Source: a virus
DNA: 42,177 nucleotides
Virus record (IMG/VR): IMGVR_UViG_3300045988_151631
Reading direction: 5' to 3' (one strand)
The notes below the pieces were generated by a model. That model did no database searches. It saw only the letters and a list, made by a program, of their open reading frames with translations, and had not been told where the DNA came from. The first letter of the stretch is position 1; every line of letters begins with the position of its first letter. Both the position numbers and the translations under genes were made by a program. Positions 1,312-38,874 of the stretch are shown here, in pieces.

Positions 1312-1527
1312 TTACTTTTCGCTTTTAACAAAGTCCGCAAATCGCTTGTATTTGGCTATTTCACGGCAGGCGCGCCGCCAAGTGCGGTAAACACTTGACT
1401 TGTCAACACCGAGCTTGTCTGCCGCTTCTTTGAGCGTTTCGCCGTTGCTTATAGCCTTATACACGGCAGCTTGCTTGCTCGTCAATAGGTTGTCGGCTAT
1501 GTACTCATTCGTTCGGTTGTACTTCAA
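1312..1527 (-). CDS. Small HTH protein, sigma-70 region 4/LuxR-like (71 aa)
   Basis: LTSKQAAVYKAISNGETLKEAADKLGVDKSSVYRTWRRA resembles region-4 HTH. Last gene of the minus-strand early operon. Confidence 0.65.
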   Translation of the reverse strand: MKYNRTNEYIADNLLTSKQAAVYKAISNGETLKEAADKLGVDKSSVYRTWRRACREIAKYKRFADFVKSEK

Positions 1528-2014
1528 TTTCTGTCACTCCTGCATCAGCTTCAAGCAGCTTTGTTATTTCATCGTTTGATTTGGCTTTTTCAAGCAAGGT
1601 CTGCGCGGGTTTTATGGCGTGCTCTATTTCATCTTTAAAGCCGTAGTTGTTCTTCAAGTTGAATATTGCAATAGCCGGATTAACATTGCCGTTGAGCGAC
1701 CACTCGGTGAGAAGTGCGAGCAGTACCCCTTCTAACCTTGCCATAGATTGTTTGCGGCGTTCGGATATACCCATTTCGCCCCGTTGCCAAGCATCATATA
1801 TCGGCTTGCCTATGCCGCAAGCGGCGCAGAAGCCCTCTCTCGTTGGGCGTAGCTCCTTTTCTTCGCAAAACTCGAAATATTCCACAATGCGCTTTTCAAA
1901 GGCTTCATCGTCTTTGTCGCTTGCCGATATGATACTCCATCCGAGCAAGTCCTTGTACTTGCCGACTGTTTCCGCCATATATTGACGGCGCAGGCTCTGC
2001 GAATATGACGGCAT
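1505..2014 (-). CDS. terS: Terminase small subunit (candidate)
   Basis: 169 aa. YFEFCEEKELRPTREGFCAACGI HTH-like segment and AIFNLKNNYGFKD motif typical of Gram-positive phage TerS proteins. Confidence 0.6.
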   Translation of the reverse strand: MPSYSQSLRRQYMAETVGKYKDLLGWSIISASDKDDEAFEKRIVEYFEFCEEKELRPTREGFCAACGIGKPIYDAWQRGEMGISERRKQSMARLEGVLLALLTEWSLNGNVNPAIAIFNLKNNYGFKDEIEHAIKPAQTLLEKAKSNDEITKLLEADAGVTEIEVQPNE

Positions 2015-8255: not shown

Positions 8256-9020
8256 CTAATACCGTGATTTTAAGATGTCATCTTTTAGGCTGGTATTTTC
8301 ACGAGCTCTTTTTTTGATTGCTTCGAGGTCATAAGTCGGTGGTCTTGTTATTTCTCCCGATTTTTCCTTTCGGGTTATTTGTGACCTGCTCCATTTACGG
8401 CACATAGCTTTCCAGCTCCGCATCGGTGCTCTTGCAACCGTCCAGCCGTTACCCTCGTAATAATCGTAAAAGTCTTGCGCATTTGTTTTCAAGGAATTTT
8501 CCGAGATATACCGCTTGATTTCGTCAAGCGAGGGAGCACTTATAAACATATCCGTAGTTTCTTTAATAGTCTCTCTCTTATGTATATTCTCTTCATTCTT
8601 TTCATTCTTTTCATTCTTGTTATAAAAAAAGTTTGTTGTTTGTTTGTTATTTGTTTGTTGTTTGTTTGTTGTTTGTTTGTTATTTGTTTGTTGCTCCGTG
8701 TCTATCAAGTCTTGATATTTCGCATAACCAAGCACTATTATGAGGGTATTTTTGTTTGTTGCTTTTTTGGAAATTTCGCCAGTTTTTTCTAATTTTTTTA
8801 GAGCCGAACGGACTTGTTGTGTTGTAAGCCCGTTTCGCGCCGCTATATCGGCAACAGAGGTCACAAAAGAGCCTTTTTCAATTTCGTGTCCGTGCCAAGC
8901 TGTGGCTTGATGATTAGCGTTTAAAATCAAATCAATAAATACACTCTTAACAGTCGGTTCATCGTACCATTCCCAATTGATAAACTTGCGGTGAAGCTTA
9001 ATCCAACCCTGTTCTGCCAC
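8256..9020 (-). CDS. Replisome organizer / DnaD-like replication protein
   Basis: N-terminal WIKLHRKFINWEWYDEP winged-helix-like region, low-complexity repeat linker, C-terminal DFYDYYEGNGW .. SWKAMCRKW. Confidence 0.7.
   Translation of the reverse strand: MAEQGWIKLHRKFINWEWYDEPTVKSVFIDLILNANHQATAWHGHEIEKGSFVTSVADIAARNGLTTQQVRSALKKLEKTGEISKKATNKNTLIIVLGYAKYQDLIDTEQQTNNKQTTNKQQTNNKQTTNFFYNKNEKNEKNEENIHKRETIKETTDMFISAPSLDEIKRYISENSLKTNAQDFYDYYEGNGWTVARAPMRSWKAMCRKWSRSQITRKEKSGEITRPPTYDLEAIKKRARENTSLKDDILKSRY
8592..8696. repeat. Tandem repeats inside the organizer gene (3 x 9 bp TTCATTCTT, then 2 x 33 bp GT-rich unit), candidate phage ori
   Basis: 9-bp copies at 8592, 8601 and 8610. 33-bp period between 8631 and 8696. 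Confidence 0.6.
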
Positions 9021-9032
9021 TTTTTACCACCT

Positions 9033-9257
9033 CTACGCTTCCGTAAGATAGTAACGGCTGTAAATAACGGGTTCTCCGTACCTATTTAAAGCTTTTTCTT
9101 GCTTGGAGGTGATGTTATACCCCTTGTGCTTTAAATCCCAAATACGCCCCGACAGGCGCGTACAGCCGTATTGTTCAAATGCTTCAAGGCTTGTTATACC
9201 TCCGTAAGTCCTCATATGTTCCAATATCTTGTTGCATTGAGAGTTAGTGCTACTCAC
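9033..9257 (-). CDS. Small winged-helix DNA-binding protein (74 aa)
   Basis: ILEHMRTYGGITSLEAFEQYGCTRLSGRIWDLKHKGY pattern. Confidence 0.6.
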   Translation of the reverse strand: MSSTNSQCNKILEHMRTYGGITSLEAFEQYGCTRLSGRIWDLKHKGYNITSKQEKALNRYGEPVIYSRYYLTEA

Positions 9258-9276
9258 GCTGATACCTCCTTACCGC

Positions 9277-9690
9277 CTAAAATGGCAAATCATCATCGTC
9301 AACGGGTTCAAAGTCCAAATTTATATTATCAGGTGCTTTGTAGCCCTCATTCTTTTTGTAAACCTCGTTTTCCGATTCGGCTTTTGAACCGCAGAAATGT
9401 ACGCGATTAACAACAACCTGAAATGATGAACGCTTTTCGCCGTTTTGGTCTGTGTATTGACTTTGGTCTATTGAGCCTTCAACGGCAATCATAGAGCCTT
9501 TGTGGAAATAGCGGGAAATAAATTCCGCTGTTTGTCTCCACGCCGTAAAGCGTATAAAGTTTGCTTTTTTACCGTCTTTGCCGAACGGGTCATCAACGGC
9601 GATTGTGCCGGAACAAACCGATAAACCGCTTTGCGTTGATTTCAATTCAGGGTCAGCCGTAAGCCTACCCATAAGTACAACTACATTCAT
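9277..9690 (-). CDS. ssb: Single-stranded DNA-binding protein
   Basis: MNVVVLMGRLTADPEL OB-fold start and acidic tail DDDDLPF. Confidence 0.9.
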   Translation of the reverse strand: MNVVVLMGRLTADPELKSTQSGLSVCSGTIAVDDPFGKDGKKANFIRFTAWRQTAEFISRYFHKGSMIAVEGSIDQSQYTDQNGEKRSSFQVVVNRVHFCGSKAESENEVYKKNEGYKAPDNINLDFEPVDDDDLPF

Positions 9691-14180: not shown

Positions 14181-14498
14181 ATGACAGATGAAGAGTTAGA
14201 AAAAAAGCATAGACAAAATTTTACTAAAAAGTTAAATTATTATATGCAGCTCAAGCACAAAAGGCAAGAGGATATTGTTGTTGACTTAGGAATTAACAAG
14301 TCCACAATTTCTACTTGGTGCAGGGGGCAAAAAATGCCACGAACAGCAACAATTCAAAAATTAGCTACCTACTTTGGCGTAACGGTTGCCGATTGCTTTG
14401 CTGTTTTAGGCTCCGGATCGGAACCGAAAGCTAAATTATCAACTGCCGCAAGGCAATTGCCGCCCGAACACACGGATAAAGAGATAATGTTTTTATAA
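14181..14498 (+). CDS. CI-like XRE-family repressor (105 aa)
   Basis: ATG 14181 after AGGAGG. VDLGINKSTISTWCRGQKMP HTH. Confidence 0.75.
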   Translation: MTDEELEKKHRQNFTKKLNYYMQLKHKRQEDIVVDLGINKSTISTWCRGQKMPRTATIQKLATYFGVTVADCFAVLGSGSEPKAKLSTAARQLPPEHTDKEIMFL

Positions 14499-14920
14499 TT
14501 TTTATCGGCCTTATCATTAAATTCAAACGCAAACAAAATATTGCGCAGTCCGGCGGGAGCGGTGCCGAAATTCTTATAAATTTTGCACGGCAGACCGGAA
14601 TCGTCGCTGTCGGCGGAAAATCTCAGCGAATACGCGCGGTTTAAATTCTCAATATCGGCGGTGATATACAGAGAATCATCATTCTCTGCAAAATCGCTGC
14701 TTTGAACAAAGAAATGGAAGTAAGCGCAATTATCGCCGTAAAAATATTGCATATAGCCCGTGGCACTGTCGCCCTCGAGTTCGAGCCACTCGGCGGATTC
14801 ATTCGCAGTCCATTTTTCAAATTCGTTTACATATTGCGAATCATAGGCAAAAGCACGAAAAGGGCACAGAAAAGCCGAAACAAAGCAAATAATGTATATC
14901 ACGGCAATTTTCCTTTTCAT
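14369..14920 (-). CDS. Secreted protein of unknown function (183 aa)
   Basis: ATG 14920 after GGAGG. Signal peptide KRKIAVIYIICFVSAFLCPFRAFA/YD. Confidence 0.7.
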   Translation of the reverse strand: MKRKIAVIYIICFVSAFLCPFRAFAYDSQYVNEFEKWTANESAEWLELEGDSATGYMQYFYGDNCAYFHFFVQSSDFAENDDSLYITADIENLNRAYSLRFSADSDDSGLPCKIYKNFGTAPAGLRNILFAFEFNDKADKNYKNIISLSVCSGGNCLAAVDNLAFGSDPEPKTAKQSATVTPK

Positions 14921-15118
14921 TTCCCGCACCTCCGCAAGCCGAATTGATTATATGTGCCGAAATTCTATATAAAATAAGTTTATATTCACATGTTGCATTT
15001 TGTCAATAAATTGCGAAATTTTCTGCTTTTTGAACAAACTAAAAGAATGCTAATTGTTCATTTTAACCAATCAAATCGCCTTGTAAACCGCACCTGAATG
15101 GCCATGTTAATCTTTGGC

Positions 15119-15760: not shown

Positions 15761-16210
15761 CTATTTGCGGTTGTTGTCAATTATACTTACTATATCATTA
15801 TCAGCCATACCATTGTCAACGGCATAACGATAATTACAGTCACAAAGTCCCTCATCATCCTCTTGTAGCTTCTTGGGTGTAGCAAGATACTTTCCAGTAA
15901 AGCGTAAAATTTCTTTTCTCCGTTTGTTCGTCAACAATGCATATGCTATCTGTTGCGAGCAATCATCTAAAGTACAATATAATGAAATAATGTTCTCATC
16001 AACAACACGGGGCTTAGTGCCAAATATATAGTTTGCATCAATATTGAACATATGACACAGCGGCACTATATATTTTATGGGAATAGGCTTTATGCCCTAT
16101 TCCCAAGCATAATAAGTTGCTGCACTAACGCCAAGGCTTGATGATGCCGCTTTAACGCTTGTCTTGCTTGATTTGCGTATTTTCCTCAGTCTGTTAAGTA
16201 TTCCTTTCAT
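15761..16210 (-). pseudogene. XRE-family HTH gene interrupted by one in-frame TAG (codon 38)
   Basis: ATG 16210 .. SSLGVSAATYYAWE-TAG-GIKPIPIKYIVPLCHMFNIDANYIFG is colinear with HTH_3 proteins. Track ORF 15761..16066 is the downstream part. Confidence 0.7.
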
Positions 16211-16318: not shown

Positions 16319-16426
16319 GTGAAAAAAACGAACAGTAAGCAAAGAGAGGAAGTGCTGAAAATGATTGAAAACTTGACACACGAACAAAAAATTCAATTCC
16401 TCGAATACATTAGCAAGCAAGAATAA
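16319..16426 (+). CDS. Possible micro-ORF (35 aa from GTG 16319, or 21 aa from ATG 16361)
   Basis: Divergent from the XRE gene, followed by a strong hairpin. Confidence 0.3.
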   Translation: MKKTNSKQREEVLKMIENLTHEQKIQFLEYISKQE

Positions 16427-16455
16427 AGGCGGGATTTTTTCCCGCCTTTAAGTTT
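16425..16455. terminator. Bidirectional terminator
   Basis: AAAGGCGGGA-ttttt-TCCCGCCTTT. Confidence 0.75.
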
Positions 16456-16968
16456 TTATTGTGCCGCTATGATTGCGCCCATATCGTAATTAACTGCCGC
16501 AAGGTCAATCAATTTTCGTTCCGCTGTGCGCAATTCGCCCGCCACTTCATAAATGAGGTTGCAAACGCTGTTAGCCGCCGAAATTTCACCTATAGTTATC
16601 AATTCACTATACGATTTTTCGTACAACTCTTTTGTTTGCTTCTCCCAATCGCGCCACTTCTCGAATCCGTCCTTGACCGCTCGTTGTTTCGTTGCCGTGT
16701 CAACATCCTGTTTAACATGATTTCGCCAACTGTCGGGTATAACGGAAATTTTATCAATGGAATATTCGGGCAAGAGCTTGTTATAATCGCACACATAATC
16801 ACTCATCCACTCGCTGTGCGTGGTGAACTCGTGGCAAGCGTGAAGCTTGTGCAATTTCTCATATTCTCCGAGATTGAGAAATGCGAAGTATTCAGCCATT
16901 TGGCTATGAAACATTATGCCCTCTATCATATGCGCGTTTATCTTTGCGAATATATCAGCAACAGTCAC
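16456..16968 (-). CDS. Hypothetical helical protein (170 aa), possibly ferritin-like four-helix bundle
   Basis: GTG 16968 after AAGGAG. Helical heptad pattern loosely like ferritin/Dps. Function uncertain. Confidence 0.6.
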   Translation of the reverse strand: MTVADIFAKINAHMIEGIMFHSQMAEYFAFLNLGEYEKLHKLHACHEFTTHSEWMSDYVCDYNKLLPEYSIDKISVIPDSWRNHVKQDVDTATKQRAVKDGFEKWRDWEKQTKELYEKSYSELITIGEISAANSVCNLIYEVAGELRTAERKLIDLAAVNYDMGAIIAAQ

Positions 16969-16972
16969 AATA

Positions 16973-17374
16973 TCACTCCTTAATAACCTTAACGGTCATA
17001 TTGTTAATAACGGCATCCGCGCCTGTTAATACAATAGAGAGTGACGATGTTTCGCAATCATTATAATTGCGTATTGTACCCACAACTGCTATGTTTGTTG
17101 TAGTGCTCACAGCTGCAACCGTTGCGCTTCCTGTTGCGCCGATGATATCTACGCCGTCATTTTTAGCCGTTACAGTTATTGTGCCTGCGGCGGCGGGCGT
17201 TGCTGTGACCGACACAAGCACCGTATAATAGCCCTTCCCTGTGTTGGCAATAGTGTTGCCGTCCTGTCTGCAATTGCAGCCGAAACGGCGCACAGTAGTG
17301 CCTAACGGTATAATGTTACCCGCAGTTACAGTCTGTGCAAGGCTGTTAACGGTTGTTATCATTGATTTACTCAT
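16973..17374 (-). CDS. Hypothetical Thr/Ala/Val-rich beta protein (133 aa), possibly BclA-C/C1q-like jelly roll
   Basis: SD GAAAGGAG. Composition and length resemble trimeric head domains. Weak inference. Confidence 0.6.
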   Translation of the reverse strand: MSKSMITTVNSLAQTVTAGNIIPLGTTVRRFGCNCRQDGNTIANTGKGYYTVLVSVTATPAAAGTITVTAKNDGVDIIGATGSATVAAVSTTTNIAVVGTIRNYNDCETSSLSIVLTGADAVINNMTVKVIKE

Positions 17375-17393
17375 AAAAAATTGCTCCTTTCAC

Positions 17394-17421
17394 AGAAAAA
17401 GAGGGCGTTAATGCGCCCTCT
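17394..17421 (-). terminator. Internal terminator of the accessory cluster
   Basis: AGAGGGCG-6 nt-CGCCCTCT then UUUUUC on the minus strand. Confidence 0.75.
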
Positions 17422-17444
17422 TTGTTACCTCGCCGTATAGGGCG

Positions 17445-18011
17445 TTAAATGTTGTTACATCCGTTGCAAGCACAGAACGGTGAAGCTCCGGCATTGTAAG
17501 TATAGCCATTAGGATAGCGTACTACACCATACATGCGGTTATCCATTTCAAGGCTTGCAACTTTATCTCGCAAAGCTTGCATTTCATTTGTTTGTATCAA
17601 CGCTCTTGTTGCTTCACCTTCTGCGTGAATTGCATTAGTAATATCACAAGTGCGTTGATTAAGCTGTGCAGACATATTAGCGGTAGCAAGTCTGTTTTCG
17701 CAGCAGCACTCTGAAATCTGCGTTGCAAGGTTTCTTCCCTCGTTAAGTATTGAGTTGTTGAGGGAATAAGTGCTGTCGCAAATGCCATTTTCAATAGCCG
17801 TCAAACGGTCATTGAGCTGGCCGAAATGCTGTCCGAACAGTATTTCCTGTTGACTTGCAGATGTAGCATAATCGCCGTAATTTTTCCCGTTATTATTCCA
17901 GCCAAAGCCCATAAACAAAAACAGTAAAATTACCCACCAAGCACCTCCGCCAAAGTCATTATCGTGCTCTGTTGCAGCTCTAACATCGGCTAACGAATAG
18001 TTAGAATCCAT
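17445..18011 (-). CDS. Membrane-anchored coiled-coil Cys-rich protein (188 aa)
   Basis: ATG 18011 after AAAGGAG. TM GGGAWWVILLFLFMGFGW, CCC motif, C-terminal CACNGC. Confidence 0.7.
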   Translation of the reverse strand: MDSNYSLADVRAATEHDNDFGGGAWWVILLFLFMGFGWNNNGKNYGDYATSASQQEILFGQHFGQLNDRLTAIENGICDSTYSLNNSILNEGRNLATQISECCCENRLATANMSAQLNQRTCDITNAIHAEGEATRALIQTNEMQALRDKVASLEMDNRMYGVVRYPNGYTYNAGASPFCACNGCNNI

Positions 18012-18042
18012 AAAATCTCCTTTCATTTATTTTATTAAATAA

Positions 18043-18056
18043 TTTGTGCGCACAAA
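18043..18056. promoter_or_regulatory. Perfect 14-bp palindrome TTTGTGCGCACAAA, candidate operator
   Basis: Lies in the 46-bp gap upstream of the 188-aa gene. Confidence 0.45.
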
Positions 18057-18057
18057 C

Positions 18058-18276
18058 TTATTTCAATATTTCTTGTAGTGATATTGCTTGCTCTTTTAAT
18101 TCTTCAAACTGTTCTTGTGTCATTTGTCCGCTTGCGAGAAGTTGCTCAACAATTGCTTTAGGGTCTCCCGTCAGCGAACTTTTAAATTTGTTAAACTCCC
18201 TTATCATTGCAGCAGGGTTAATCTGATTTTGCCTTTGTGTTCTTTTTGTTAATTGTTGCAGTATCGGATTGAGCAT
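18058..18276 (-). CDS. Small helical protein (72 aa)
   Basis: ATG 18276 after GGAGG. Overlaps the 3' end of the upstream gene by 59 nt. Confidence 0.6.
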   Translation of the reverse strand: MLNPILQQLTKRTQRQNQINPAAMIREFNKFKSSLTGDPKAIVEQLLASGQMTQEQFEELKEQAISLQEILK

Positions 18277-18589
18277 TGATTATTTCCTCCAGTCTTGTTA
18301 CTCGTTCGTTTAATGATTTTGCTTCTGCCTCTGCTTCTGTCTTATACGGAGTAATCGAATAAGGCAAAACGGTTTTATATCCTGCGCCGTCCGTTTCGGC
18401 AAGCCAAACGATGGGCGCGGTTGTGTCAAGCATTAGCACGCTGCTGTTGGGGGCTAATTGGTATGCTTCCGCACCATTCTTGCCGTTTACACGCACAACC
18501 TCTGTGCGCTGTTGGGCTTGCATTTGGTTAAGCCGTTGCATATAAGGATTGTTGTATTGGTAAGGGTTATTGTATGGGTCATACATCAT
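18218..18589 (-). CDS. Hypothetical protein (123 aa) with Tyr/Pro/Asn-rich N-terminus
   Basis: ATG 18589 after AAAGGAG. MMYDPYNNPYQYNNPY then a beta-rich domain. Confidence 0.65.
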   Translation of the reverse strand: MMYDPYNNPYQYNNPYMQRLNQMQAQQRTEVVRVNGKNGAEAYQLAPNSSVLMLDTTAPIVWLAETDGAGYKTVLPYSITPYKTEAEAEAKSLNERVTRLEEIINAQSDTATINKKNTKAKSD

Positions 18590-18618
18590 ATCAACCGCTC
18601 CTTTCAGCTTTAATATAT

Positions 18619-18659
18619 AAAAAAAGAAGCGATACAAAGTATCAACTCTGTATCGCTTC
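18619..18659 (-). terminator. Strong terminator overlapping the stop of the 71-aa regulator gene
   Basis: 11-bp stem GAAGCGATACA/TGTATCGCTTC then 7 U. Confidence 0.8.
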
Positions 18660-18857
18660 ACGAATGATTTTGTTTATTAAATTCGTTTTGATTTTGTAAA
18701 ACCGATTGCGGTTAATGCTTAATTCAAACATTATGCCGTCGTCGGTCATATCATTTCGGGCTAAGTGGTTTATAATGATTTTTTCATCCTCGGTAAAGCC
18801 TATCTTTTTATCGAGGGTTGCAATATCTCTTTGCGAGAGAAAAGACAAATCAAGCAT
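18642..18857 (-). CDS. Small sigma region-4-like / ArpU-like regulator (71 aa)
   Basis: FTEDEKIIINHLARNDMTDDGIMFELSINRNRFYKIKTNL resembles region-4 HTH proteins. Confidence 0.5.
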   Translation of the reverse strand: MLDLSFLSQRDIATLDKKIGFTEDEKIIINHLARNDMTDDGIMFELSINRNRFYKIKTNLINKIIREAIQS

Positions 18858-18897: not shown

Positions 18898-19278
18898 TTA
18901 TTTTTCAATGAAATTCGCACTAAGTGACTGCCATAGCCATTCGCCTGTGTATATATCACGCATAAGCATAGGTGACGAGCGGTCGCCTACATACATTGTG
19001 GAGGTCCGGGCTTTGCCGTCCTCCGCGTCAAAATATTTGGCGGTGAAAAACTCGTCTTTAATCGCGTTGAGAATAAATGACAAGTCGGAAGTAGACAGAA
19101 TGCCCCACTGGATTGTAAGTTTGCGTTTCCTTGCCACTCGGTCGCGGGTCATATCGCCGTTTGCATTTCTACCTGTGCCCTCGTCATCGTCCAAGTCTTG
19201 TAATCCCCAAGTGATAGCTTTAGGGTCAGGCAATGCTTGACCATTGACAAGCAGTATTCCGCTTCTTTTAACGCGCAC
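18898..19278 (-). CDS. Hypothetical phage protein (126 aa)
   Basis: GTG 19278 after GAAAGGAG. Track start 19434 would overlap the divergent gene and lacks SD. Confidence 0.65.
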   Translation of the reverse strand: MRVKRSGILLVNGQALPDPKAITWGLQDLDDDEGTGRNANGDMTRDRVARKRKLTIQWGILSTSDLSFILNAIKDEFFTAKYFDAEDGKARTSTMYVGDRSSPMLMRDIYTGEWLWQSLSANFIEK

Positions 19279-19318: not shown

Positions 19319-19347
19319 TTGATTTTTACATTTATTTGTGATAATGT
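19319..19347 (+). promoter_or_regulatory. Promoter of the zinc-ribbon membrane protein gene
   Basis: TTGATT, 17 nt, TGaTAATGT (extended -10). Confidence 0.5.
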
Positions 19348-19378
19348 TAAATAAAAAAGAAATATGGAGGTTTCAAAA

Positions 19379-19690
19379 ATGAAAGTATGCCCTCGTTGTA
19401 ATGCACAAAACAGTGACAATGCGACAAATTGCACAAATTGCGGATTTAATTTTATGCAAAATCCACAACATCAGCCGATAATGCCGCAACAGCCTATACC
19501 GCAAGCGCAGATAAATCCTCAAACCGCATATTATTACGGTATGAAGGAACAGAAAAAGAAGGCACGAAAAACCGCGTTATCGTGGGAATATTATTCTTTA
19601 TTTTTGTTATCGGTGCGGCGAGCTCATCCGACAGCGGAAACACAAGCAACAACGCAACCGCCAACAGTACCATCGGCTCAGGCGAAGTGA
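19379..19690 (+). CDS. Zinc-ribbon N-terminal part of a split membrane protein
   Basis: ATG 19379 after GGAGG. CPRCNAQN..CTNCG, Pro/Gln linker. The frame becomes nonsensical after KKKARK. Confidence 0.6.
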   Translation: MKVCPRCNAQNSDNATNCTNCGFNFMQNPQHQPIMPQQPIPQAQINPQTAYYYGMKEQKKKARKTALSWEYYSLFLLSVRRAHPTAETQATTQPPTVPSAQAK

Positions 19691-20061
19691 CAACGCAAAA
19701 AAACAACACAGGTTCATATAATGTTGAAGTCAAAAGCGCAAAGCTTGCGAAAGATGTTAGCGATGACCCGATTATCGTGGTTACTTACTCATTCACGAAC
19801 AACAGCGATGATTCTATTGCATTTGATACAATTATAGATGACAAAGCATTCCAAGATGGTGTCGAATTAGGCTTTGTCTATACAAGTTGGGGCGTTGACG
19901 GACTGGATTTTGAAACACAGGGTAAAGAAATTAAGCCCGGCGTAACATACGATGTTACTTGCGCCTATGAATTAAACGACCAAAGCACTCCTGTTGACAT
20001 TGAATTGTATAGATACTTCAAGGACGAACCGTTTTATAAATACCGAGTAATAATTAAATAG
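19582..20061 (+). CDS. TM helix plus DUF4352/DUF5067-like extracellular domain (C-terminal part of the split gene)
   Basis: Frame open from 19450. VIVGILFFIFVIGAASS TM then a beta-sandwich-like domain. Confidence 0.6.
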   Translation: MGILFFIFVIGAASSSDSGNTSNNATANSTIGSGEVTTQKNNTGSYNVEVKSAKLAKDVSDDPIIVVTYSFTNNSDDSIAFDTIIDDKAFQDGVELGFVYTSWGVDGLDFETQGKEIKPGVTYDVTCAYELNDQSTPVDIELYRYFKDEPFYKYRVIIK

Positions 20062-20069
20062 CAGAAGCA

Positions 20070-20097
20070 AAGCAAGGATTTATTCCTTGCTTTTTTC
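20070..20097. terminator. Bidirectional terminator between convergent genes
   Basis: AAGCAAGGA-tttat-TCCTTGCTT then TTTTTC. The tail-fibre stop lies in the loop. Confidence 0.75.
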
Positions 20098-22860
20098 TAT
20101 TTTGTCGAGGCGCGCTCTCAGCTCGTCTATTTCGGCTTTTTGCTCTTGTATAAGCTTCAGCATAGCGGGAAGCACTATGCGCTCTCTCCAGCTCTCAGGC
20201 TCGCCGTCATCGTTGTATTGGCAAGCATTGGGATAATACTTGTCTACATCCTCGGCTATAAGTCCGACTTGCATACCCTCAACAAGCTGTTTATCCTTGT
20301 GCTCATCTTTGTATTGATACTGTTTAACAGGTAAATCATAAAGCTTGTGCGGGTCTAAATCCTCGTTAAACTCGGTGCTTATATCCTTTTTGTAGCGTGC
20401 AGATGAAGTGGTGCATTGAAGTCTTCCGTCACCATCAACATACACTGGTGCTAAGCCGGAATCACTCGAACGCCAATTGATATAAGTGTCTCCTCGCAAA
20501 TGGCTATCATCGTTTAGGTCGAGTATTCCTTGCACATCAAGCTTTCCTTCTACATACATACCACCATCGCAAGAAAACATAATAGACTTGCCATCCGGAA
20601 CAGAAATAGCTAAATCACGGTCAACAGACATTGTAGACCTTAGTGTACTGCTTGAACCATCACTCCATGTGTTCGTGCTAAATGTGAATATTGAACGGTT
20701 CTTTTTGCCATCATGTGCCACAAGATAAACTACGCCGCCCTCAATATATGTTCTGTAATTTTTATCATAGTAGCCATAACCGATAACAAGTGCCCCGTCT
20801 TGATATGGCGAAAGAATTAAATTTCCGCTTGCATCGTAAAGGTTAGAATCGTTGCTTGAAAGATAAATACCATTATAGCAATGTTGCTCTCCGTTAGAAG
20901 TAACCCACCATCTGCCGTGGTATCCGTCACTCTCTTTTTGCTGCACAGAAAATGCCCAGCTCTTATCACCAATCACCGCGGATTGCACATAAGTACGATA
21001 ATTGCCGTTATCTGCCCATAAGGCTTCTGAATCGATGTTAAAGCCGCCTATTGTGCCGGTGTAAGATAATATCCCGTCAGCAAATATTTTACCGTCTTTG
21101 GTGAGAGCTGTTGCATATGTTTTGCCGCCATTGGGTGTATAACCTAAAGCGCCATTGTTCCATACCCACATTGCAACATTGGTACTTCCGTTGGCAGTAA
21201 CAACCTTGCCTTCGGCATTATCCCATTTAAGCTCAATATCAGCATCGGGGATAGCTATTGCGCGCATTTTGTTTTGGGCATCATAAACGAATTTAACATA
21301 GCCGCCATTTACACCTGTGAACATAGAAACAATGTTTTGGTATTTTTCGTTAAAATCTGAAAATACTTGTGTTAAAGTTTTCGTGCTCGGGGTGCTTATG
21401 AATGTTGCCTTGCCGTCTGTTGTAATGTTGCCGTCAATAGAGGCGCTCATTCCACCCTTAAAGCTTATTGTCTGTGAGCAAATCAAAACCGGCACCAAGG
21501 TGTTGTCTTTGTCTTTGACATAGACTATATCACCGCTTTCATATGCTATATTACCTCGGTTTTTTAGCGTTGCCGGTGTAAGCTTTATATCGGAATATAG
21601 ATTTAATATATTTTGTGCATCTGTCTTGTCGATATATGGATTTGTAAAGTTAAATCCAAACTCACCGCTTCCAACAGTTATGGCCCCACCGTTTCCGTTG
21701 GAATCTTTTTCTGTTCCTGTTGTTAAATAATCAACTGAAAGTGGGTTTTGCTTTTCTTTTTGAAATCCGTTTTGAAAATATTGTCCCAAGCCTATGGTGT
21801 AGTTTGTATCGGTGTATGGTGCAATAACAAGCTCATCATTGGCATTTATTTTAGCGTTGCCGCCAAGCAAGCCTGCCATATAACCGACCATAGCACGGGG
21901 CGAAACATTGAAAAATCCGGGGTTTGGTAACAATTTATCAGTATTTACAAGCACCATGCTCTCATAATATTTAGTTATTATCTTATAGGTGTTTGCTTTG
22001 CTCTTTTCAGCATCAGCACCTTTTAACGAAAAGCCTAAATATGTTTCATATGGCAAACTCGGCACTAATAATGTGCAAGTTATATATTCCTCGCCTGTAT
22101 TTAAATCAATAAATTGTGACAGCTGCAAGCCGCTGTATTCGTTGTAAGTCAATAAGTTTGTTCCAAGCATACCTCTAAAGAGGCATACTTGGAGTGGGTC
22201 ACTGTAACTGTCACTTGAAAACATTCGCCATTCAACCTCTTTGGCATAAGGTGGAATGCGCACAAGGTTGTTTTTACCAATGCCGTAAAACAAGTCTGCC
22301 TGCACTTCATCGCCGTTGCTGTTATAGCTAACAGCTTCTGCTTTGCAATCTGCAGTTATAGTCAGCGTTTCAGGCTCTTTTTTTATATTTGCAATTATGC
22401 CTGCCTGATCTGCAATATCTAATATTACACTTGTAGCCCTTACTTTGTCTGCGCCTAACTTGCAAGTATAAGTGTTTCCAAGTGCATTAAGCTTGAGCAT
22501 TGCATCATATGCTTTAATTGTTACTGATTTATAATTATTTGTAGTTGAAACACTGTCAACATAATATACGCCTATGGGCGTATACTCTGTGTTACCGTCA
22601 ACAACTATGCCAAATTCAAGCTTAATTTTGGCATTTTCAAGCCCAACGAAATTATCAGGCACATACATTTCCATTTGCAACTCGTTACTGCAAGTGTTGC
22701 CAAGTGATAATGTGCTTGTTGAGCACATTGTATCTGTAATTTCAGCTGATATAATGTGCTCTCCGTCCACAACATACTTGTCATTGAATGTAGCCTTGAT
22801 TTTTATTTGGCGGCTGTCTCCGTCAAAGGCGCTTTTTACTTTTGGGTTTAATATTTTCAT
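20080..22860 (-). CDS. Tail fibre / tail-associated protein with C-terminal intramolecular chaperone (peptidase S74) domain
   Basis: 926 aa directly after the tape measure. C-terminus DLPVKQYQYK .. VGLIAEDVDKYYP .. LPAMLKLIQEQKAEIDELRARL is S74-like. Confidence 0.8.
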   Translation of the reverse strand: MKILNPKVKSAFDGDSRQIKIKATFNDKYVVDGEHIISAEITDTMCSTSTLSLGNTCSNELQMEMYVPDNFVGLENAKIKLEFGIVVDGNTEYTPIGVYYVDSVSTTNNYKSVTIKAYDAMLKLNALGNTYTCKLGADKVRATSVILDIADQAGIIANIKKEPETLTITADCKAEAVSYNSNGDEVQADLFYGIGKNNLVRIPPYAKEVEWRMFSSDSYSDPLQVCLFRGMLGTNLLTYNEYSGLQLSQFIDLNTGEEYITCTLLVPSLPYETYLGFSLKGADAEKSKANTYKIITKYYESMVLVNTDKLLPNPGFFNVSPRAMVGYMAGLLGGNAKINANDELVIAPYTDTNYTIGLGQYFQNGFQKEKQNPLSVDYLTTGTEKDSNGNGGAITVGSGEFGFNFTNPYIDKTDAQNILNLYSDIKLTPATLKNRGNIAYESGDIVYVKDKDNTLVPVLICSQTISFKGGMSASIDGNITTDGKATFISTPSTKTLTQVFSDFNEKYQNIVSMFTGVNGGYVKFVYDAQNKMRAIAIPDADIELKWDNAEGKVVTANGSTNVAMWVWNNGALGYTPNGGKTYATALTKDGKIFADGILSYTGTIGGFNIDSEALWADNGNYRTYVQSAVIGDKSWAFSVQQKESDGYHGRWWVTSNGEQHCYNGIYLSSNDSNLYDASGNLILSPYQDGALVIGYGYYDKNYRTYIEGGVVYLVAHDGKKNRSIFTFSTNTWSDGSSSTLRSTMSVDRDLAISVPDGKSIMFSCDGGMYVEGKLDVQGILDLNDDSHLRGDTYINWRSSDSGLAPVYVDGDGRLQCTTSSARYKKDISTEFNEDLDPHKLYDLPVKQYQYKDEHKDKQLVEGMQVGLIAEDVDKYYPNACQYNDDGEPESWRERIVLPAMLKLIQEQKAEIDELRARLDKIEKSKE

Positions 22861-30573: not shown

Positions 30574-31452
30574 TTATCCGTGATAATCCACAAATCCGCA
30601 TTTTTGCTTGTTTGTGCCGTTTACTTTATATAGCACAAGATACATACCGTCAATTCTACCTAAACAATAGCAGCTTTCGTATTTATCTATGCTACCTACT
30701 CGTGTATCTCTGGCTGTATCAGCATAAACCGTTTCGGGTGTGCTTCCGTTGCGCCAGGTTTTTGATTGAGGTGGAGCTCCGTTCAAGCCGCCAGCGTAAG
30801 CTACAAATCCCGCCTTGTGCGCTTGACCGTTCTTAATCGAATACACAATTAAGTAACAGTTACCTGCCTTGCTATAACACTGAGCCGTGCTCTTTGCATA
30901 TACAGTGCCGATTTTATCCGTGCAATCATTAACCGCATAAACAGTCTCAGCTGTGCTTCCATTGCGCCAAGTTATAGGTGTTGGATAGCTTCCGCTTGAA
31001 GCACTTGAAGTGTTGCCGGAGCTTTGTGCAACCTTGCTTTGGTCTCTCGGTCGGAGCACTCCATATACGCCTGAATATGTGTGTTTAACCTTTTTCACCG
31101 GCTTTCCGTTCCAATTTTGGTCGTATGAATAGAAGCTGCGCGTGTCACCATCGCCTGTGGCTATCGCGATATGGCCTGCGCCGTTGCCTACGGAGCTATT
31201 CCACACAACTATATCACCACGCTTTGGAATGAGCTGCGGCGTATTTTTGATTTTATCGAAGTTTGCTTTGAGTGGTGCACGCAAGGCAAAGTTAATCCAG
31301 TAGAATCGAGCATTGCCCCAGCTTCCCGCCGATATACCAAAAACATCGTGCAGATAAGCCTTAATAAGGTCTACGCATTGCACGCCGTATGCGCCGTCAT
31401 AGTCGGTTGATTTGCCAAGATATTTATTAACAAATTCGGAGTAGTTCATCAT
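30574..31452 (-). CDS. Endolysin: N-terminal CHAP domain plus two SH3b-like wall-binding repeats
   Basis: GAYGVQCVDLIKAY .. GHIAIATG. Duplicated TWRNGST.ETVYA modules. Confidence 0.85.
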   Translation of the reverse strand: MMNYSEFVNKYLGKSTDYDGAYGVQCVDLIKAYLHDVFGISAGSWGNARFYWINFALRAPLKANFDKIKNTPQLIPKRGDIVVWNSSVGNGAGHIAIATGDGDTRSFYSYDQNWNGKPVKKVKHTYSGVYGVLRPRDQSKVAQSSGNTSSASSGSYPTPITWRNGSTAETVYAVNDCTDKIGTVYAKSTAQCYSKAGNCYLIVYSIKNGQAHKAGFVAYAGGLNGAPPQSKTWRNGSTPETVYADTARDTRVGSIDKYESCYCLGRIDGMYLVLYKVNGTNKQKCGFVDYHG

Positions 31453-31718
31453 TCACCCTCCGTTTCGTCTGTTCTCGGTGCTTCATATGTAAGCGCCTGC
31501 GTACTGTCGCTTATGCCCTTTGTGGTTGGGTCTGAAATAATACCGATTGCCGCAGGTATCATAAGAACAAGCGTTGCCGCATTCATGATATCAGTGGCTG
31601 CCACGCTCGTTTTAATGCCGAAAAGGTTAAGAATAGCGAATACGGCTACAATTACGGCTGATATAATACCAAGCCACCAAGAGCCACTTTTTAATCGTAC
31701 TTTCCAGTTGATTTTCAT
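31449..31718 (-). CDS. Holin (phi LC3-like)
   Basis: MKINWKVRLKSGSWWLGIISAVIV, two TM helices, directly upstream of the endolysin gene. Confidence 0.8.
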   Translation of the reverse strand: MKINWKVRLKSGSWWLGIISAVIVAVFAILNLFGIKTSVAATDIMNAATLVLMIPAAIGIISDPTTKGISDSTQALTYEAPRTDETEGE

Positions 31719-31999
31719 TGTTTATCCTCCTTGTGTTCAAGGGCAGAAATTCTGCCCTCGTGGTTGTTGATTTTTTCGCCCTGCTCATCGAGGCGTTCAA
31801 AAATCTGCTTGTGGCGACTTGAAGCCTTGACTTTGAGCTCATCCGTTTCTTTTTCGTTTTGCTCAATTCGGTAAATCAAATTCTTAATTTCGCCGCTGAG
31901 CTGTGTCATAGCGCGGGTGTTCTTAACAAGCGGCGCCGCCACTGTGCCGATGAGGCCGACTATAACAACTACAACGGTGACTATATTCCACTCAGTCAC
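31715..31999 (-). CDS. XhlA-like membrane-anchored coiled-coil lysis-associated protein
   Basis: One TM helix plus coiled coil. Position before the holin as in PBSX xhlA-xhlB-xlyA. Confidence 0.5.
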   Translation of the reverse strand: MTEWNIVTVVVVIVGLIGTVAAPLVKNTRAMTQLSGEIKNLIYRIEQNEKETDELKVKASSRHKQIFERLDEQGEKINNHEGRISALEHKEDKQ

Positions 32000-36613: not shown

Positions 36614-38266
36614 TTAAAACAATCTATCCATAATTTTTATGTTCTCAAATGAGATTTTCTCTTTCATCATAGCTAAAGAAGCCAAACTGTCAGGCGCGTC
36701 ATCGTGTTTGTTCTTGCCCTCAACAACGAACGAAAACACGCCTTGCATAAACAACGCATATTCTTTGTTTCGGCTGTCCGTGCTCCGAAAATACATTTCC
36801 CGTATTTCCGGTGCGCGCTCAAATATTCGGAATTGCTTCTTTTGTCGGCTATATGCGTATGCGCCGTTCATATTGCAATAATAGTTACGCTTTTTCAACA
36901 ATTCGGCTACATCGTTCATGTACGCTTCGCCGCCTTGGTTAAACTCAAAATCCGCCATTTTCACATTATTGCGAATTATCGCATTTGCAATCAAGGGTTC
37001 GGTAACGCGCTTATCACCGTTATTGAACACAACATCGTGAATATATATGCGGTCGCCGTATTGGTAAGCAATAGGAAATGAGGTATAGTCGCCGCCGCCG
37101 AACGCAAGGTCGCCAAAAGCAAATACTCTGTCGGGTTCTGCATCGGGAAGCGTGCCGTTGTAAAAATTCATTGTATCGGATGTAAACAATGTGCCTTGTC
37201 TTTCAACGGGTTCACCTTGAAACTGAGCAAGCCAAGAAGCCATATCGTTATTGGCCTCGAACGAAGCGCGGCGCTCCCGGAAATATTCGGTGCTGAAGCC
37301 AACGCCGTAAGCATAATTAAAATTACTCTCATCGTTTTCATCAAGCGCAGGCAAATTGATAATCTTATATCGCGTATTTTTAAATGCGGAGTTTGTTTCA
37401 AGTAAACTCATCCTACGGCCCGCAGGGTCTGTCAAGCTCCACCTTGTGCCTATCCAAAGCTTTTTTGCCTTTTCCTTTGTACGAGTAACAAGGTTGTTAT
37501 CCACTTTGCTCCACGCACTATCAAGGCGGTTTTTGTTGAGTGCTTCCTCAATGCCGCCTATAAGGTCATCGGACACAAGAATACCGTCGCAGTCACAAGC
37601 ACCGTTAAGCGTTCCGTACAAAGAACGCGCGGTCATAGTAGGATAACGCTTTTTGCGTTTCAAATCCAATGTTTCCATTGCGGCATTTGTTGCCACTATA
37701 TTTATATCCGGGAACACATCGCCCCACAGATAAGTAAGGTCATCGTTTAATATCTCCAATATGCCATTATAGAACGCCTGCGTTATTGTATCGGAAAACG
37801 CACTGTAAAGGTTACTGCTCTCGGGTCGTTTACCGATAATCCAAGTCATAAAGAATGACACAAGCGTTGTTTTCCCAACTCTCGGAGGCATTGACAAAAA
37901 CAATTCATCAAGCTTATCATCCGCCAACTCCTGCATTGCGATAACCACGGGAAGCATTACCTTTCTGCGCGGCAGATAAAAGCGTTTGTGTGGCGGTCTA
38001 TTCAATTCCACATAAAGCAAATAGCTGTCAAAATCATACGGTGCAGCACACAAAAGTGCCGCCTTATAAAGCTTGTGAAACTCTAAAGCCGCCTTTGTGT
38101 CGCCTATGGACTGTTTTTTGATGTTTTTACGGCAAAGGGCTATAACTCGCTTGACGACCTCTAAATCCTTGTCATTTCGCCCCACATCAAGCAACATAGA
38201 CACATATTCAATTTTAGTCATATCCTTTGTCCGGATAATCTGCTCGGCTAACTTATTCATAGGCAT
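36614..38266 (-). CDS. terL: Terminase large subunit
   Basis: 550 aa. Walker A LSMPPRVGKTT, nuclease-domain-size C-terminus, upstream of the portal gene. Confidence 0.9.
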   Translation of the reverse strand: MPMNKLAEQIIRTKDMTKIEYVSMLLDVGRNDKDLEVVKRVIALCRKNIKKQSIGDTKAALEFHKLYKAALLCAAPYDFDSYLLYVELNRPPHKRFYLPRRKVMLPVVIAMQELADDKLDELFLSMPPRVGKTTLVSFFMTWIIGKRPESSNLYSAFSDTITQAFYNGILEILNDDLTYLWGDVFPDINIVATNAAMETLDLKRKKRYPTMTARSLYGTLNGACDCDGILVSDDLIGGIEEALNKNRLDSAWSKVDNNLVTRTKEKAKKLWIGTRWSLTDPAGRRMSLLETNSAFKNTRYKIINLPALDENDESNFNYAYGVGFSTEYFRERRASFEANNDMASWLAQFQGEPVERQGTLFTSDTMNFYNGTLPDAEPDRVFAFGDLAFGGGDYTSFPIAYQYGDRIYIHDVVFNNGDKRVTEPLIANAIIRNNVKMADFEFNQGGEAYMNDVAELLKKRNYYCNMNGAYAYSRQKKQFRIFERAPEIREMYFRSTDSRNKEYALFMQGVFSFVVEGKNKHDDAPDSLASLAMMKEKISFENIKIMDRLF

Positions 38267-38313: not shown

Positions 38314-38874
38314 TTATTTATTATGTTCGTTGATAATCCTATAAAGCGATGTTCGCCCCACGCCTAAGCACTCGGCAAACTCTGCTCCTTTTATTTCTCC
38401 ATTACAATATTGTGCGTACAATCTTTGGTATTCTTCTTCATCGTAAGTCTTTTTCGGCCTGCCGAATTTCGTACCTTTCAGCTTTGCGGCTGCTATGCCC
38501 TCTCTTGCTCTTTCTAAGGTTTGCTCTCTCTCTAACTCACTGAGTGCGGCAAAAACCGTTAACATAAACTTTCCTTGCGGTGTAGATGTATCAATATTTT
38601 CTTTCTGCACCACAAGCTCAACATCTTTTGCCTTTAAGCAATCAACTATACTGAGGAAGTCCCTTGTGCTCCTTGCAAGCCTTGATATACTCTCAACTAT
38701 AAGCACATCGCCCTCTCTTACATAGCTTTCCATTGCTTTAAGTGCGGGTCTCTCTCTCTTTGCACCGCTCTCCTTATCTACGAATATCTTTTCAACACCT
38801 AATCTCTCCATAAGCAAATCTTGTCTATCCGTATGCTGTTGAGCTGTACTCACTCTTACATATCCTATTTTCAT
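38314..38874 (-). CDS. Small serine recombinase (resolvase/invertase family)
   Basis: MKIGYVRVSTAQQ (catalytic Ser motif), LIVESISRLARS, C-terminal HTH. 186 aa. Confidence 0.9.
   Translation of the reverse strand: MKIGYVRVSTAQQHTDRQDLLMERLGVEKIFVDKESGAKRERPALKAMESYVREGDVLIVESISRLARSTRDFLSIVDCLKAKDVELVVQKENIDTSTPQGKFMLTVFAALSELEREQTLERAREGIAAAKLKGTKFGRPKKTYDEEEYQRLYAQYCNGEIKGAEFAECLGVGRTSLYRIINEHNK

Follow-up and report, generated by a model that had tools for sequence, protein, structure and literature searches.

A cluster of six minus-strand genes (P1 to P6) at positions 16456-18857 of the viral sequence IMGVR_UViG_3300045988_151631 (the window, meaning the whole stretch of 42,177 nucleotides (nt) that was analysed) is a copy of a conserved accessory operon ("moron-type") that tailed phages of gut anaerobes carry as a self-contained unit. 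All open reading frames (ORFs) within a few kilobases of the gene for P4, the core protein of the cassette, were clustered at 100 loci, and the gene order was found to be constant: a small helix-turn-helix (HTH) regulator, a hairpin, P2 and P3, a hairpin, P4, a hairpin, a beta protein and a helical protein, and a terminator. P2 is present at 93 of the 100 loci and P3 at 91, the latter as two types that are related to each other (hhalign E 1.3e-4). A beta protein lies directly 3' of P4 at 99 loci (of the window type at 41 and of a different, Cys-rich type at 58); a helical protein is next at 97 (DUF7841 at 78, the P6 type of the window at 9 and a type of 100 amino acids (aa) at 10); and a small HTH protein, belonging to one of three types, lies upstream at 79. 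These loci represent 18 P4 lineages in which the co-occurring genes keep the same order, which bears out the grouping of the genes into one functional unit by an earlier, sequence-only reading of the window. P2, P3 and P4 are constant, and the beta and helical slots accept non-homologous alternatives: by hhalign, no homology was detectable among the alternative occupants of the beta slot, or among those of the helical slot. A fixed architecture with a dedicated regulator, conserved hairpins and swappable distal parts suggests a real molecular machine, unlike single-gene cargo.

Relatives were found at the protein level. Searching with P4 by tblastn retrieved 22 phage records, in several of which homologues of P5 or P6 adjoin; a scan of IMG/VR gave 167 contigs with P4; and a genome scan with a narrower alignment added 17 further loci, mostly on phage-sized contigs with unreliable bin taxonomy. 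The only match to other phages at the DNA level was 88 nt long.

The six genes and the hairpins between them

In order of transcription, all on the minus strand, the genes encode P1 (18642-18857; 71 aa), a putative small HTH regulator resembling sigma-70 region 4 and LuxR/GerE proteins; P2 (18218-18589; phrog_21718), which has 123 aa from an ATG start, the form chosen by gene calls in sister contigs over an alternative GTG-start ORF of 147 aa; P3 (18058-18276; 72 aa; phrog_22984), a helical protein whose gene overlaps that of P2 by 59 nt; P4 (17445-18011; 188 aa; phrog_16490), which contains CCC and a C-terminal CxCxxC motif; P5 (16973-17374; 133 aa), a predicted jelly roll of the C1q/TNF-like kind; and P6 (16456-16968; 170 aa; GTG start), a predicted divergent ferritin-like protein. 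A GGAG-type Shine-Dalgarno (SD) sequence lies 6-10 nt 5' of every one of them. Hairpin T1 (18626..18659, minus strand; -21.8 kcal/mol) consists of a 15-bp stem with T7 behind it, encloses the stop codon of P1 and is 34 nt from the start of P2. Hairpin T2 (17399..17422, minus strand), between P4 and P5, consists of AAGAGGGCG-loop-CGCCCTCTT (-15.1 kcal/mol) followed by TTTCTGTG; it was not picked up by a consensus terminator scan. A perfect 14-nt palindrome, TTTGTGCGCACAAA (18043..18056), lies between P3 and P4, and a bidirectional terminator (16424..16450) 3' of P6 ends the cassette. None of 100 shuffled sequences contained a palindrome of this kind, and the region from 14 to 21 kb has 16 terminator-like sites compared with 6.7 +/- 2.6 in shuffles. 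The ORFs, SD sequences, overlap, Cys motifs and palindrome are all as the sequence-only reading had described them, and its two strong terminators are likewise in place, T1 enclosing the P1 stop and T2 following P4.

The hairpins are found at equal gene boundaries in different lineages, with unrelated sequences: between the regulator and P2 in six of the six lineages with a recognised regulator, between P4 and the beta gene in 11 of 18, and after the last gene in most. The palindrome is the local form of a hairpin that is conserved around the P3 stop codon in 13 lineages, among them Dulem virus 36 and a Clostridium perfringens phage; in most of the 13 it lies 21-30 nt 5' of the P4 start, and its stem shows compensatory changes. 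The distance from a hairpin to the next start is approximately 30 nt, and visual inspection of these intervals for a sigma-70 promoter found no room for one and no convincing match; thus, the regulator may be freely transcribed and the downstream genes may be expressed by attenuated or conditional read-through. The graded or conditional expression that had been proposed for the window fits this punctuation, conserved as it is across lineages.

P1 has weak PHROG matches to a transcriptional regulator and a sigma factor, and aligns with GerE-type regulators that occupy the same slot elsewhere at an hhalign probability of 49% (E 1.8e-4); one of these slot-mates, at locus L062, matches Pfam GerE (7e-13) and Sigma70_r4_2 (6e-7). 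These matches weakly suggest that P1 is an HTH protein of the sigma-70 region 4/LuxR type, in agreement with its first description as sigma region 4-like. Stand-alone GerE/LuxR or sigma-70 region 4 HTH proteins are like P1 in size (71-80 aa), but P1 itself has no match in Pfam or NCBIfam. A third type of regulator, which has 77 aa and is not alignable, occupies the slot at most loci.

P2 begins with an N-terminal tail rich in Tyr, Pro, Asn and Gln; residues 31-80 make up a small alpha/beta domain, and a short zipper helix and a basic tail complete the protein. The structural comparison suggested with the sequence-only reading gave for P2 a confident AlphaFold2 (AF2) core (predicted local distance difference test score, pLDDT, ~96) to which Foldseek found nothing in the PDB with E below 0.3 and only uncharacterised phage homologues in BFVD, and for P4 a topology of low confidence. 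P3 matches phrog_22984 at 2e-13 and has a SHOCT-like C-terminal motif (Pfam SHOCT 4e-4, under the gathering cut-off). Scans of P1 to P6 against Pfam, NCBIfam and PADLOC gave nothing usable, and the judgement that no known system fits the gene set stands after the NCBIfam and PADLOC scans.

The core protein P4

P4 of the window matches the phrog_16490 hidden Markov model (HMM) at 4.4e-10. Its N-terminal tail is acidic (family mean net charge -2.6) and is followed by a Trp/Phe-rich hydrophobic segment that is flanked by Gly runs and has a Kyte-Doolittle 19-residue mean of 1.6-1.8; the conserved Cys residues are C78, CCC 102-104, C122, C180 and C185, and the conserved C-terminal motif is GVVRYPNGYxYxAGxSPFC. 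The AF2 model of P4 is of low confidence (pLDDT 47) and predicts one transmembrane (TM) helix and a single helix at approximately residues 60-158; it was used for the topology of the TM segment and the long helix alone. The P4 family forms 3117 clusters at 90% identity, with 821 representatives at 50%; all are approximately 170-250 aa in length, always stand-alone and with no Pfam domain. It has no match in 72,556 plasmids, and appears to be confined to phages. The family is thus large, and it occurs in abundant human-gut phages, including crAss-like phages; no function has been assigned to P4 or its fixed partners.

The exchangeable distal proteins

With the profile of the P5 family, PDB chains of BclA score 6e-4 to 4e-3, and cerebellin C1q is matched as well. 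Pfam BclA_C matches are found in 17 of 24 members of the family, P5 itself not being one of them, and none reaches the gathering cut-off of 38 bits (best score 29.8). P5 is predicted to be a C1q/TNF-type jelly roll of the BclA C-terminal type, a match of 6e-4 to the PDB supporting the fold class only. The size of P5 is that of one jelly-roll domain, as in the BclA C-terminal domain (PF18573; PDB 1WCK, 2R6Q, 3TWI) and C1q/TNF proteins, but unlike BclA it has no collagen-like GXX repeats and no exosporium-targeting N-terminal motif, and its context is not a spore. The alternative beta protein has conserved Cys clusters; its profile has no PDB match and its members have no meaningful Pfam match.

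In the PDB, over 20 ferritin chains are matched by the P6 family profile (best 7e-4), the similarity covering helices A-B and reaching past them; P6 has no Pfam ferritin match. To judge from its family profile, P6 is a divergent member of the ferritin-like superfamily, as the sequence-only reading had thought possible. It equals the four-helix bundles of ferritin, bacterioferritin and Dps in length (170 aa) and is similar to them in profile, but unlike ferritin it lacks conserved di-iron ligands: only H21 and L33 are invariant in the family, the ferroxidase ligands not being conserved, and the di-iron site has therefore probably been lost. The 100-aa alternative occupant of the helical slot is a ferritin-like half-protein (BfrB, 1.7e-4) that keeps E22, Y29, E54 and H57 (E..Y / ExxH). 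The DUF7841 profile has no PDB match, no detectable relative and no similarity to ferritin. No signal peptide is visible in the sequences of P2, P3, P5 and P6. In Clostridium phage CS266P1 (L003; 4974-5567), a P6-type ferritin-like protein follows the tail genes with no P4 neighbour; thus, the P6-type protein travels outside the cassette too.

Position of the cassette next to the attachment site

In temperate relatives, the cassette lies at the end of the late/lysis operon, against the attachment site (att) and the integrase gene (int). In all nine of the diverse relatives compared, the first large gene past the cassette encodes an integrase and lies on the opposite strand (six tyrosine recombinases and three large serine recombinases); at locus L007, genes for an NlpC/P60 endolysin and a holin precede the cassette; and many IMG/VR contigs terminate exactly between the cassette and int. 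Metagenomic contigs as long as 419 kb contain the prophage of the window in integrated form. The window and the integrated copies cease to be homologous at window position 14384, within a signal-peptide protein gene (14369..14929, minus strand) that marks a putative att junction; the protein is shorter in the window (186 aa) than in lysogens, where it reaches 310 aa and carries a C-terminal TM anchor. Beyond the breakpoint are host-like genes (flavodoxin, LrgAB, a ClC channel and others), which places the cassette approximately 2 kb from the host junction. The breakpoint at ~14384 is likely to be the att crossover inside a surface-protein gene, and with a crossover at that site the window looks excised or circularly permuted. 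No integrase was found in the window, where the sole recombinase among the scanned ORFs is a resolvase of 186 aa and no integrase-sized ORF is left unassigned. The assignment of the cluster to an att/int slot for morons is thus upheld by the integrated copies that end ~2 kb downstream, by the nine relatives with an integrase and by a sister phage with other cargo, but not by any integrase beside the cluster in the window.

The behaviour of the slot as a hotspot was followed at loci anchored on the L007 integrase. The cassette is present at 35 of these loci, and two more are cut by contig ends. At L154 and L156 (8316-9892, minus strand), the 80-aa regulator and DUF7841 are retained, and a 150-aa Gly-rich "mini-P4" with a TM segment and a coiled coil, together with a 110-aa protein, replaces P2, P3, P4 and the beta protein. 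L153 has the same integrase, a near-identical holin and an NlpC/P60 endolysin related to those of cassette-bearing sisters such as L154; its slot (8356-9566, minus strand) holds an unrelated 268-aa protein and a 79-aa HTH-like protein, and no cassette was found in ~7 kb past the integrase. Thus, with unrelated cargo at L153 and a variant at L154 and L156, the slot acts as an exchangeable cargo site. Morons include bor and lom of phage lambda and the toxin genes that staphylococcal or streptococcal phages carry between lysin and attR. The cassette is like lambda-type morons and lysogenic-conversion cargo in being accessory, patchy among close relatives, located at the late-operon end by att/int and bracketed by terminators, but it is unlike them in being an operon of five to six genes with a regulator, not a single gene, and in occurring also in phages with no integrase nearby. 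This last occurrence leaves the description of the genes as prophage-expressed without support.

Occurrence in phages of other hosts

All carriers of the cassette are from gut anaerobes, and the cassette is absent from the Bacillus phages in a collection of 50,697 records. With the C. perfringens P4 as query, homologues were found in crAss-like phages, in Bacteroides uniformis phage C3_41T2LP and in two viruses assigned to Methanomassiliicoccales, the host being given as written in the virus records; these homologues are confirmed by the family HMM (3e-16, 4e-12, 5e-8 and 6.5e-9). P4 of the crAss-like phage cr116_1 matches phrog_16490 at 1.8e-50, and the vir215 record itself notes phrog_16490. 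Depositors have labelled the crAss-like P4 homologues "spike protein/glycoprotein" or "outer capsid protein/viral fiber". The gene before P4 in cr125_1 encodes a DUF7841 protein (HMM 3.7e-26), and the two genes after P4 in both crAss-like phages encode, in this order, a ~140-aa beta-rich protein with Cys residues and a ~170-186-aa protein that combines a beta domain with a coiled coil; homology of these two proteins to P5 and P2 was not detectable. In cr116_1, a seven-gene P4 block with a small HTH protein first is inserted between orthologues of crAss001 gp30 (45% identity) and gp31 (47% identity). In crAss001, tblastn gave no match to the cr116_1 P4 and HMM searches found no P4 or DUF7841 in the first 50 kb, which include the locus; thus, neither the virion nor lysis requires the block in that lineage. 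The C. perfringens phages and the Bacteroides uniformis phage are cultured carriers, so that the role of such att-proximal cargo in the interplay of phage with phage and phage with host is directly testable. Several genes of cr125_1 (L108), including that of the P4 homologue, have in-frame TAG codons, consistent with stop-codon reassignment.

Possible functions of the operon

The products of the cassette may form a membrane-tethered complex for phage-phage competition at the host membrane, acting by superinfection exclusion or by an abortive, membrane-directed defence; this is put forward tentatively, as the likeliest of several functions none of which is probable. P4 would be a stalk, probably trimeric, whose conserved hydrophobic segment with flanking Gly runs holds it in the cytoplasmic membrane; P2 and P3 and the pair P5 and P6, which lack signal peptides, would assemble on P4 at the cytoplasmic face; the hairpins would impose a step-down or conditional read-through that provides the regulator in excess of the structural parts; and the swappable distal pair of beta and helical proteins would be the specificity end. 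In favour of this function are the constant order and co-occurrence of the genes, the conserved hairpins, the att/int slot, the hotspot behaviour, the insertion of the P4 block in cr116_1 at a place where crAss001 has none, the TM segment joined to a long helix, the lack of visible signal peptides in P2, P3, P5 and P6, and the remoteness of holin and endolysin genes from the cassette in the window.

Several observations weigh against competition at the membrane. PADLOC-DB 2.0 has no match to any of P1 to P6 apart from a single, chance-level one of P4 to a RecX-like model (E 0.026), and the absence of copies in the plasmid collection makes for a phage-only family, which is unusual for mobile defence systems; with these two results, the defence or exclusion role raised by the sequence-only reading stays a guess. 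The cassette also occurs in phages with no integrase seen within flanks of 5-6 kb: in C. perfringens phages HMD-PC1 and vB_CpeS-17DYC it is among the early genes, after an antirepressor; in Dulem virus 36 it is between the receptor-binding protein gene and replication genes; in Bajarodcaudo virus 5 it is after the holin and lysin genes, with replication-type genes of the opposite strand next; and in crAss-like, Dulem and Bajarodcaudo viruses it follows lysis genes. The P4 helix is rich in Asn, Gln, Ser and Thr and has many Cys residues, so that it resembles extracellular fibres more closely than coiled coils of the cytoplasm, and the membrane topology, the oligomeric state and all contacts between the proteins are predicted only. 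Finally, the hairpins are not followed by any visible promoter for the genes downstream of them.

A broader and more doubtful proposal is that the cassette represents an undescribed cross-phylum accessory apparatus of gut viruses, ranging over Clostridia phages, crAss-like and Bacteroides phages and possibly viruses of methanogens, in which a self-regulated operon attenuated by hairpins would encode a membrane-anchored, Cys-bearing trimeric stalk (phrog_16490) with exchangeable heads (C1q/TNF-like or other beta proteins) and ferritin-like or DUF7841 partners, a novel sort of membrane system encoded by phages for exclusion of or defence against competing viruses. Literature searches on BclA and prophages, DUF7841, endospore appendages, phrog_16490 and virion proteomics of C. 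perfringens phages found nothing relevant.

The main rival, itself unlikely, is that the cassette encodes a virion appendage that the phage can do without: P4 would form a trimeric coiled-coil fibre or needle, Cys-rich and foldon-like at its C-terminus and with a hydrophobic N-terminal segment that serves as a membrane-insertion peptide at infection, P5 would be a TNF-like knob, P2 an adaptor, and P6 or DUF7841 a fibre chaperone. The composition of the P4 helix is that of a fibre, the C1q/TNF-like fold is typical for fibre heads, the swapping of the head and "chaperone" slots resembles the exchange of receptor-binding modules, and depositors annotated the crAss-like homologues as spike or fiber; in addition, the coiled-coil part of a P2-like neighbour in C3_41T2LP matches phrog_473, "virion structural protein", at 1.4e-8. 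The family is found only in phages and is spread over host phyla, and an appendage could spread across phages of different phyla by binding gut material instead of a host-specific receptor. The tail needle of phages P22 (gp26) and Sf6 is a trimeric coiled coil with a TNF-like knob. The cassette would share with these needles and T4 fibritin the combination of a long Asn/Gln-rich helix and a TNF-like trimer; unlike in those proteins, shaft and knob are two distinct proteins, the N-terminus of the shaft is TM-like and the genes are outside structural modules, and no sequence or fold match to them was obtained. A conserved TM-like segment is unusual for a fibre. The cassette lies outside structural operons, behind terminators and its own regulator, and is among early or recombination genes in the C. 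perfringens phages and C3_41T2LP; it is neither in a head or tail operon nor kept in all close relatives. It is missing from crAss001 (tblastn, and HMMs on the first 50 kb) and from L153 (~7 kb past the integrase), both of which share neighbouring structural and lysis genes with carriers, and this lack in sister phages whose structural and lysis genes are the same contradicts a core role in the virion or in lysis. Should the module nevertheless prove to be such a fibre, it would indicate a trait of gut virions that does not depend on the host.

It is improbable that the cassette is an accessory of lysis or egress, with P4 as an i-spanin-like protein or lysis regulator that would tune the timing or completion of envelope disruption. 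The Rz i-spanin of phage lambda has an N-terminal TM segment, a periplasmic coiled coil and an intermolecular Cys, and the architecture of P4, as given by the low-confidence model, is the same (an N-terminal TM segment and a coiled coil with Cys); furthermore, the cassette is directly 3' of holin and endolysin genes in several lineages of Bacillota and Bacteroidota phages. However, P4 has no sequence similarity to Rz, and the cassette has no lipobox protein that could be the o-spanin lipoprotein partner (Rz1); the monoderm C. perfringens is among the hosts; the lysis genes of the window are 12 kb away; and L153 lacks the cassette despite its near-identical holin and related NlpC/P60 endolysin. 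That the cassette is itself the lysis cassette was rejected, as the holin and endolysin genes of the relatives are upstream of it and those of the window are at 30574-31999.

There is still less to expect of a redox or iron-handling auxiliary module for anaerobic hosts, built of ferritin-like and metal-binding Cys-cluster proteins. Ferritin-like occupants are found in two of the three types of the last slot, one of which keeps the E..Y / ExxH ligands, P4 and the alternative beta protein have conserved Cys clusters, and the carriers are all from gut anaerobes; on the other side, DUF7841, the commonest occupant of the last slot, lacks similarity to ferritin, P6 of the window lacks the conserved ferroxidase residues, and no redox enzyme domain was found in the six proteins of the window, the alternative slot occupants or the scanned neighbours.

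Modification of the spore surface (coat or exosporium), expressed in the mother cell under a GerE-like regulator, was favoured initially for the BclA_C-like domain of the P5 family, the GerE/LuxR-type slot-mate regulator, the Cys-, Tyr- and Gln-rich proteins without signal peptides and the presence of C. perfringens among the hosts, and is now rejected as very improbable because P4 homologues occur in crAss-like, Bacteroides uniformis and Methanomassiliicoccales-assigned viruses (one crAss-like phage having DUF7841 as well), none of whose hosts sporulates, a distribution that also removes the spore modification named by the sequence-only reading; the cassette is missing from the Bacillus phages of the 50,697-record collection, there is no room for a sigma-E or sigma-K promoter between hairpins and genes, and P5 lacks the GXX repeats of a BclA-type exosporium glycoprotein, a protein of spore-forming hosts.

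Flanking genes and layout of the window

Directly upstream of P1 is a DUF6711 gene (18898..19278, minus strand; 126 aa; GTG start; Pfam 1e-13, phrog_1194 2e-34) that is also called in sister contigs and is probably co-transcribed with P1. It lies outside the conserved cassette and is otherwise seen in L004 and L005 only; relatives sought by means of DUF6711 were the same two contigs only. The sole promoter-like site 5' of DUF6711 and P1 is a sigma-70-like candidate, TTAACA-17-AAAAAT with TG (19322..19350, minus strand), a consensus match only, in the divergent intergenic region. Between the tail fibre gene and the cluster are also two overlapping plus-strand ORFs (19364-20061) of 108 and 159 aa, Zn-ribbon and DUF5067; they are one gene of 233 aa in sister contigs, indicating a frameshift or a sequence error in the window, and constitute a separate convergent cargo gene with its own bidirectional terminator (20069-20093). 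Thus, the cluster is past the tail fibre gene, as had been stated, but does not follow it directly, since the Zn-ribbon/DUF5067 and DUF6711 genes intervene. Downstream of the cassette, an Xre/HTH_3-type gene (15761-16210, minus strand) is interrupted by an in-frame stop at codon 38 (E*G); the integrated sister prophages L101-L105 carry it intact, with EEG at this place and 149 aa in all.

The window corresponds approximately to one siphovirus-type phage genome with ~41% guanine plus cytosine, nearly everything being carried by the minus strand, and its closest isolates are phages of Clostridia. First in transcription order is the 186-aa resolvase, a small serine recombinase (38314-38874, minus strand) that adjoins the large terminase; the large terminase, an SPP1-type portal and a MuF-like protein follow. 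The lysis cassette encodes, on the minus strand, a 94-aa TM and coiled-coil protein (31715-31999), an 89-aa holin with two TM segments (31449-31718) and a 292-aa CHAP endolysin (30574-31452). Its placement (30574-31999) is unusual, not after the tail genes but within the head-morphogenesis module, with the MuF and 470-aa protein genes on one side and scaffold and capsid genes on the other. It is followed by an SU10-type major capsid protein and then by a 1038-aa tape-measure-like protein. The 926-aa tail fibre with an S74 chaperone domain (20080-22860, minus strand) comes just before the cluster region in transcription order, and the early genes beyond the cluster encode YopX, DUF7666, two single-stranded DNA-binding proteins, DUF1064, an MT-A70 methylase, a dUTPase and a gp3-like small terminase. 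The small terminase (1505-2014, minus strand) and the large terminase (36614-38266, minus strand) are at opposite ends of the window, which implies either circular permutation or an intervening plus-strand stretch at 39-42 kb with a different skew.

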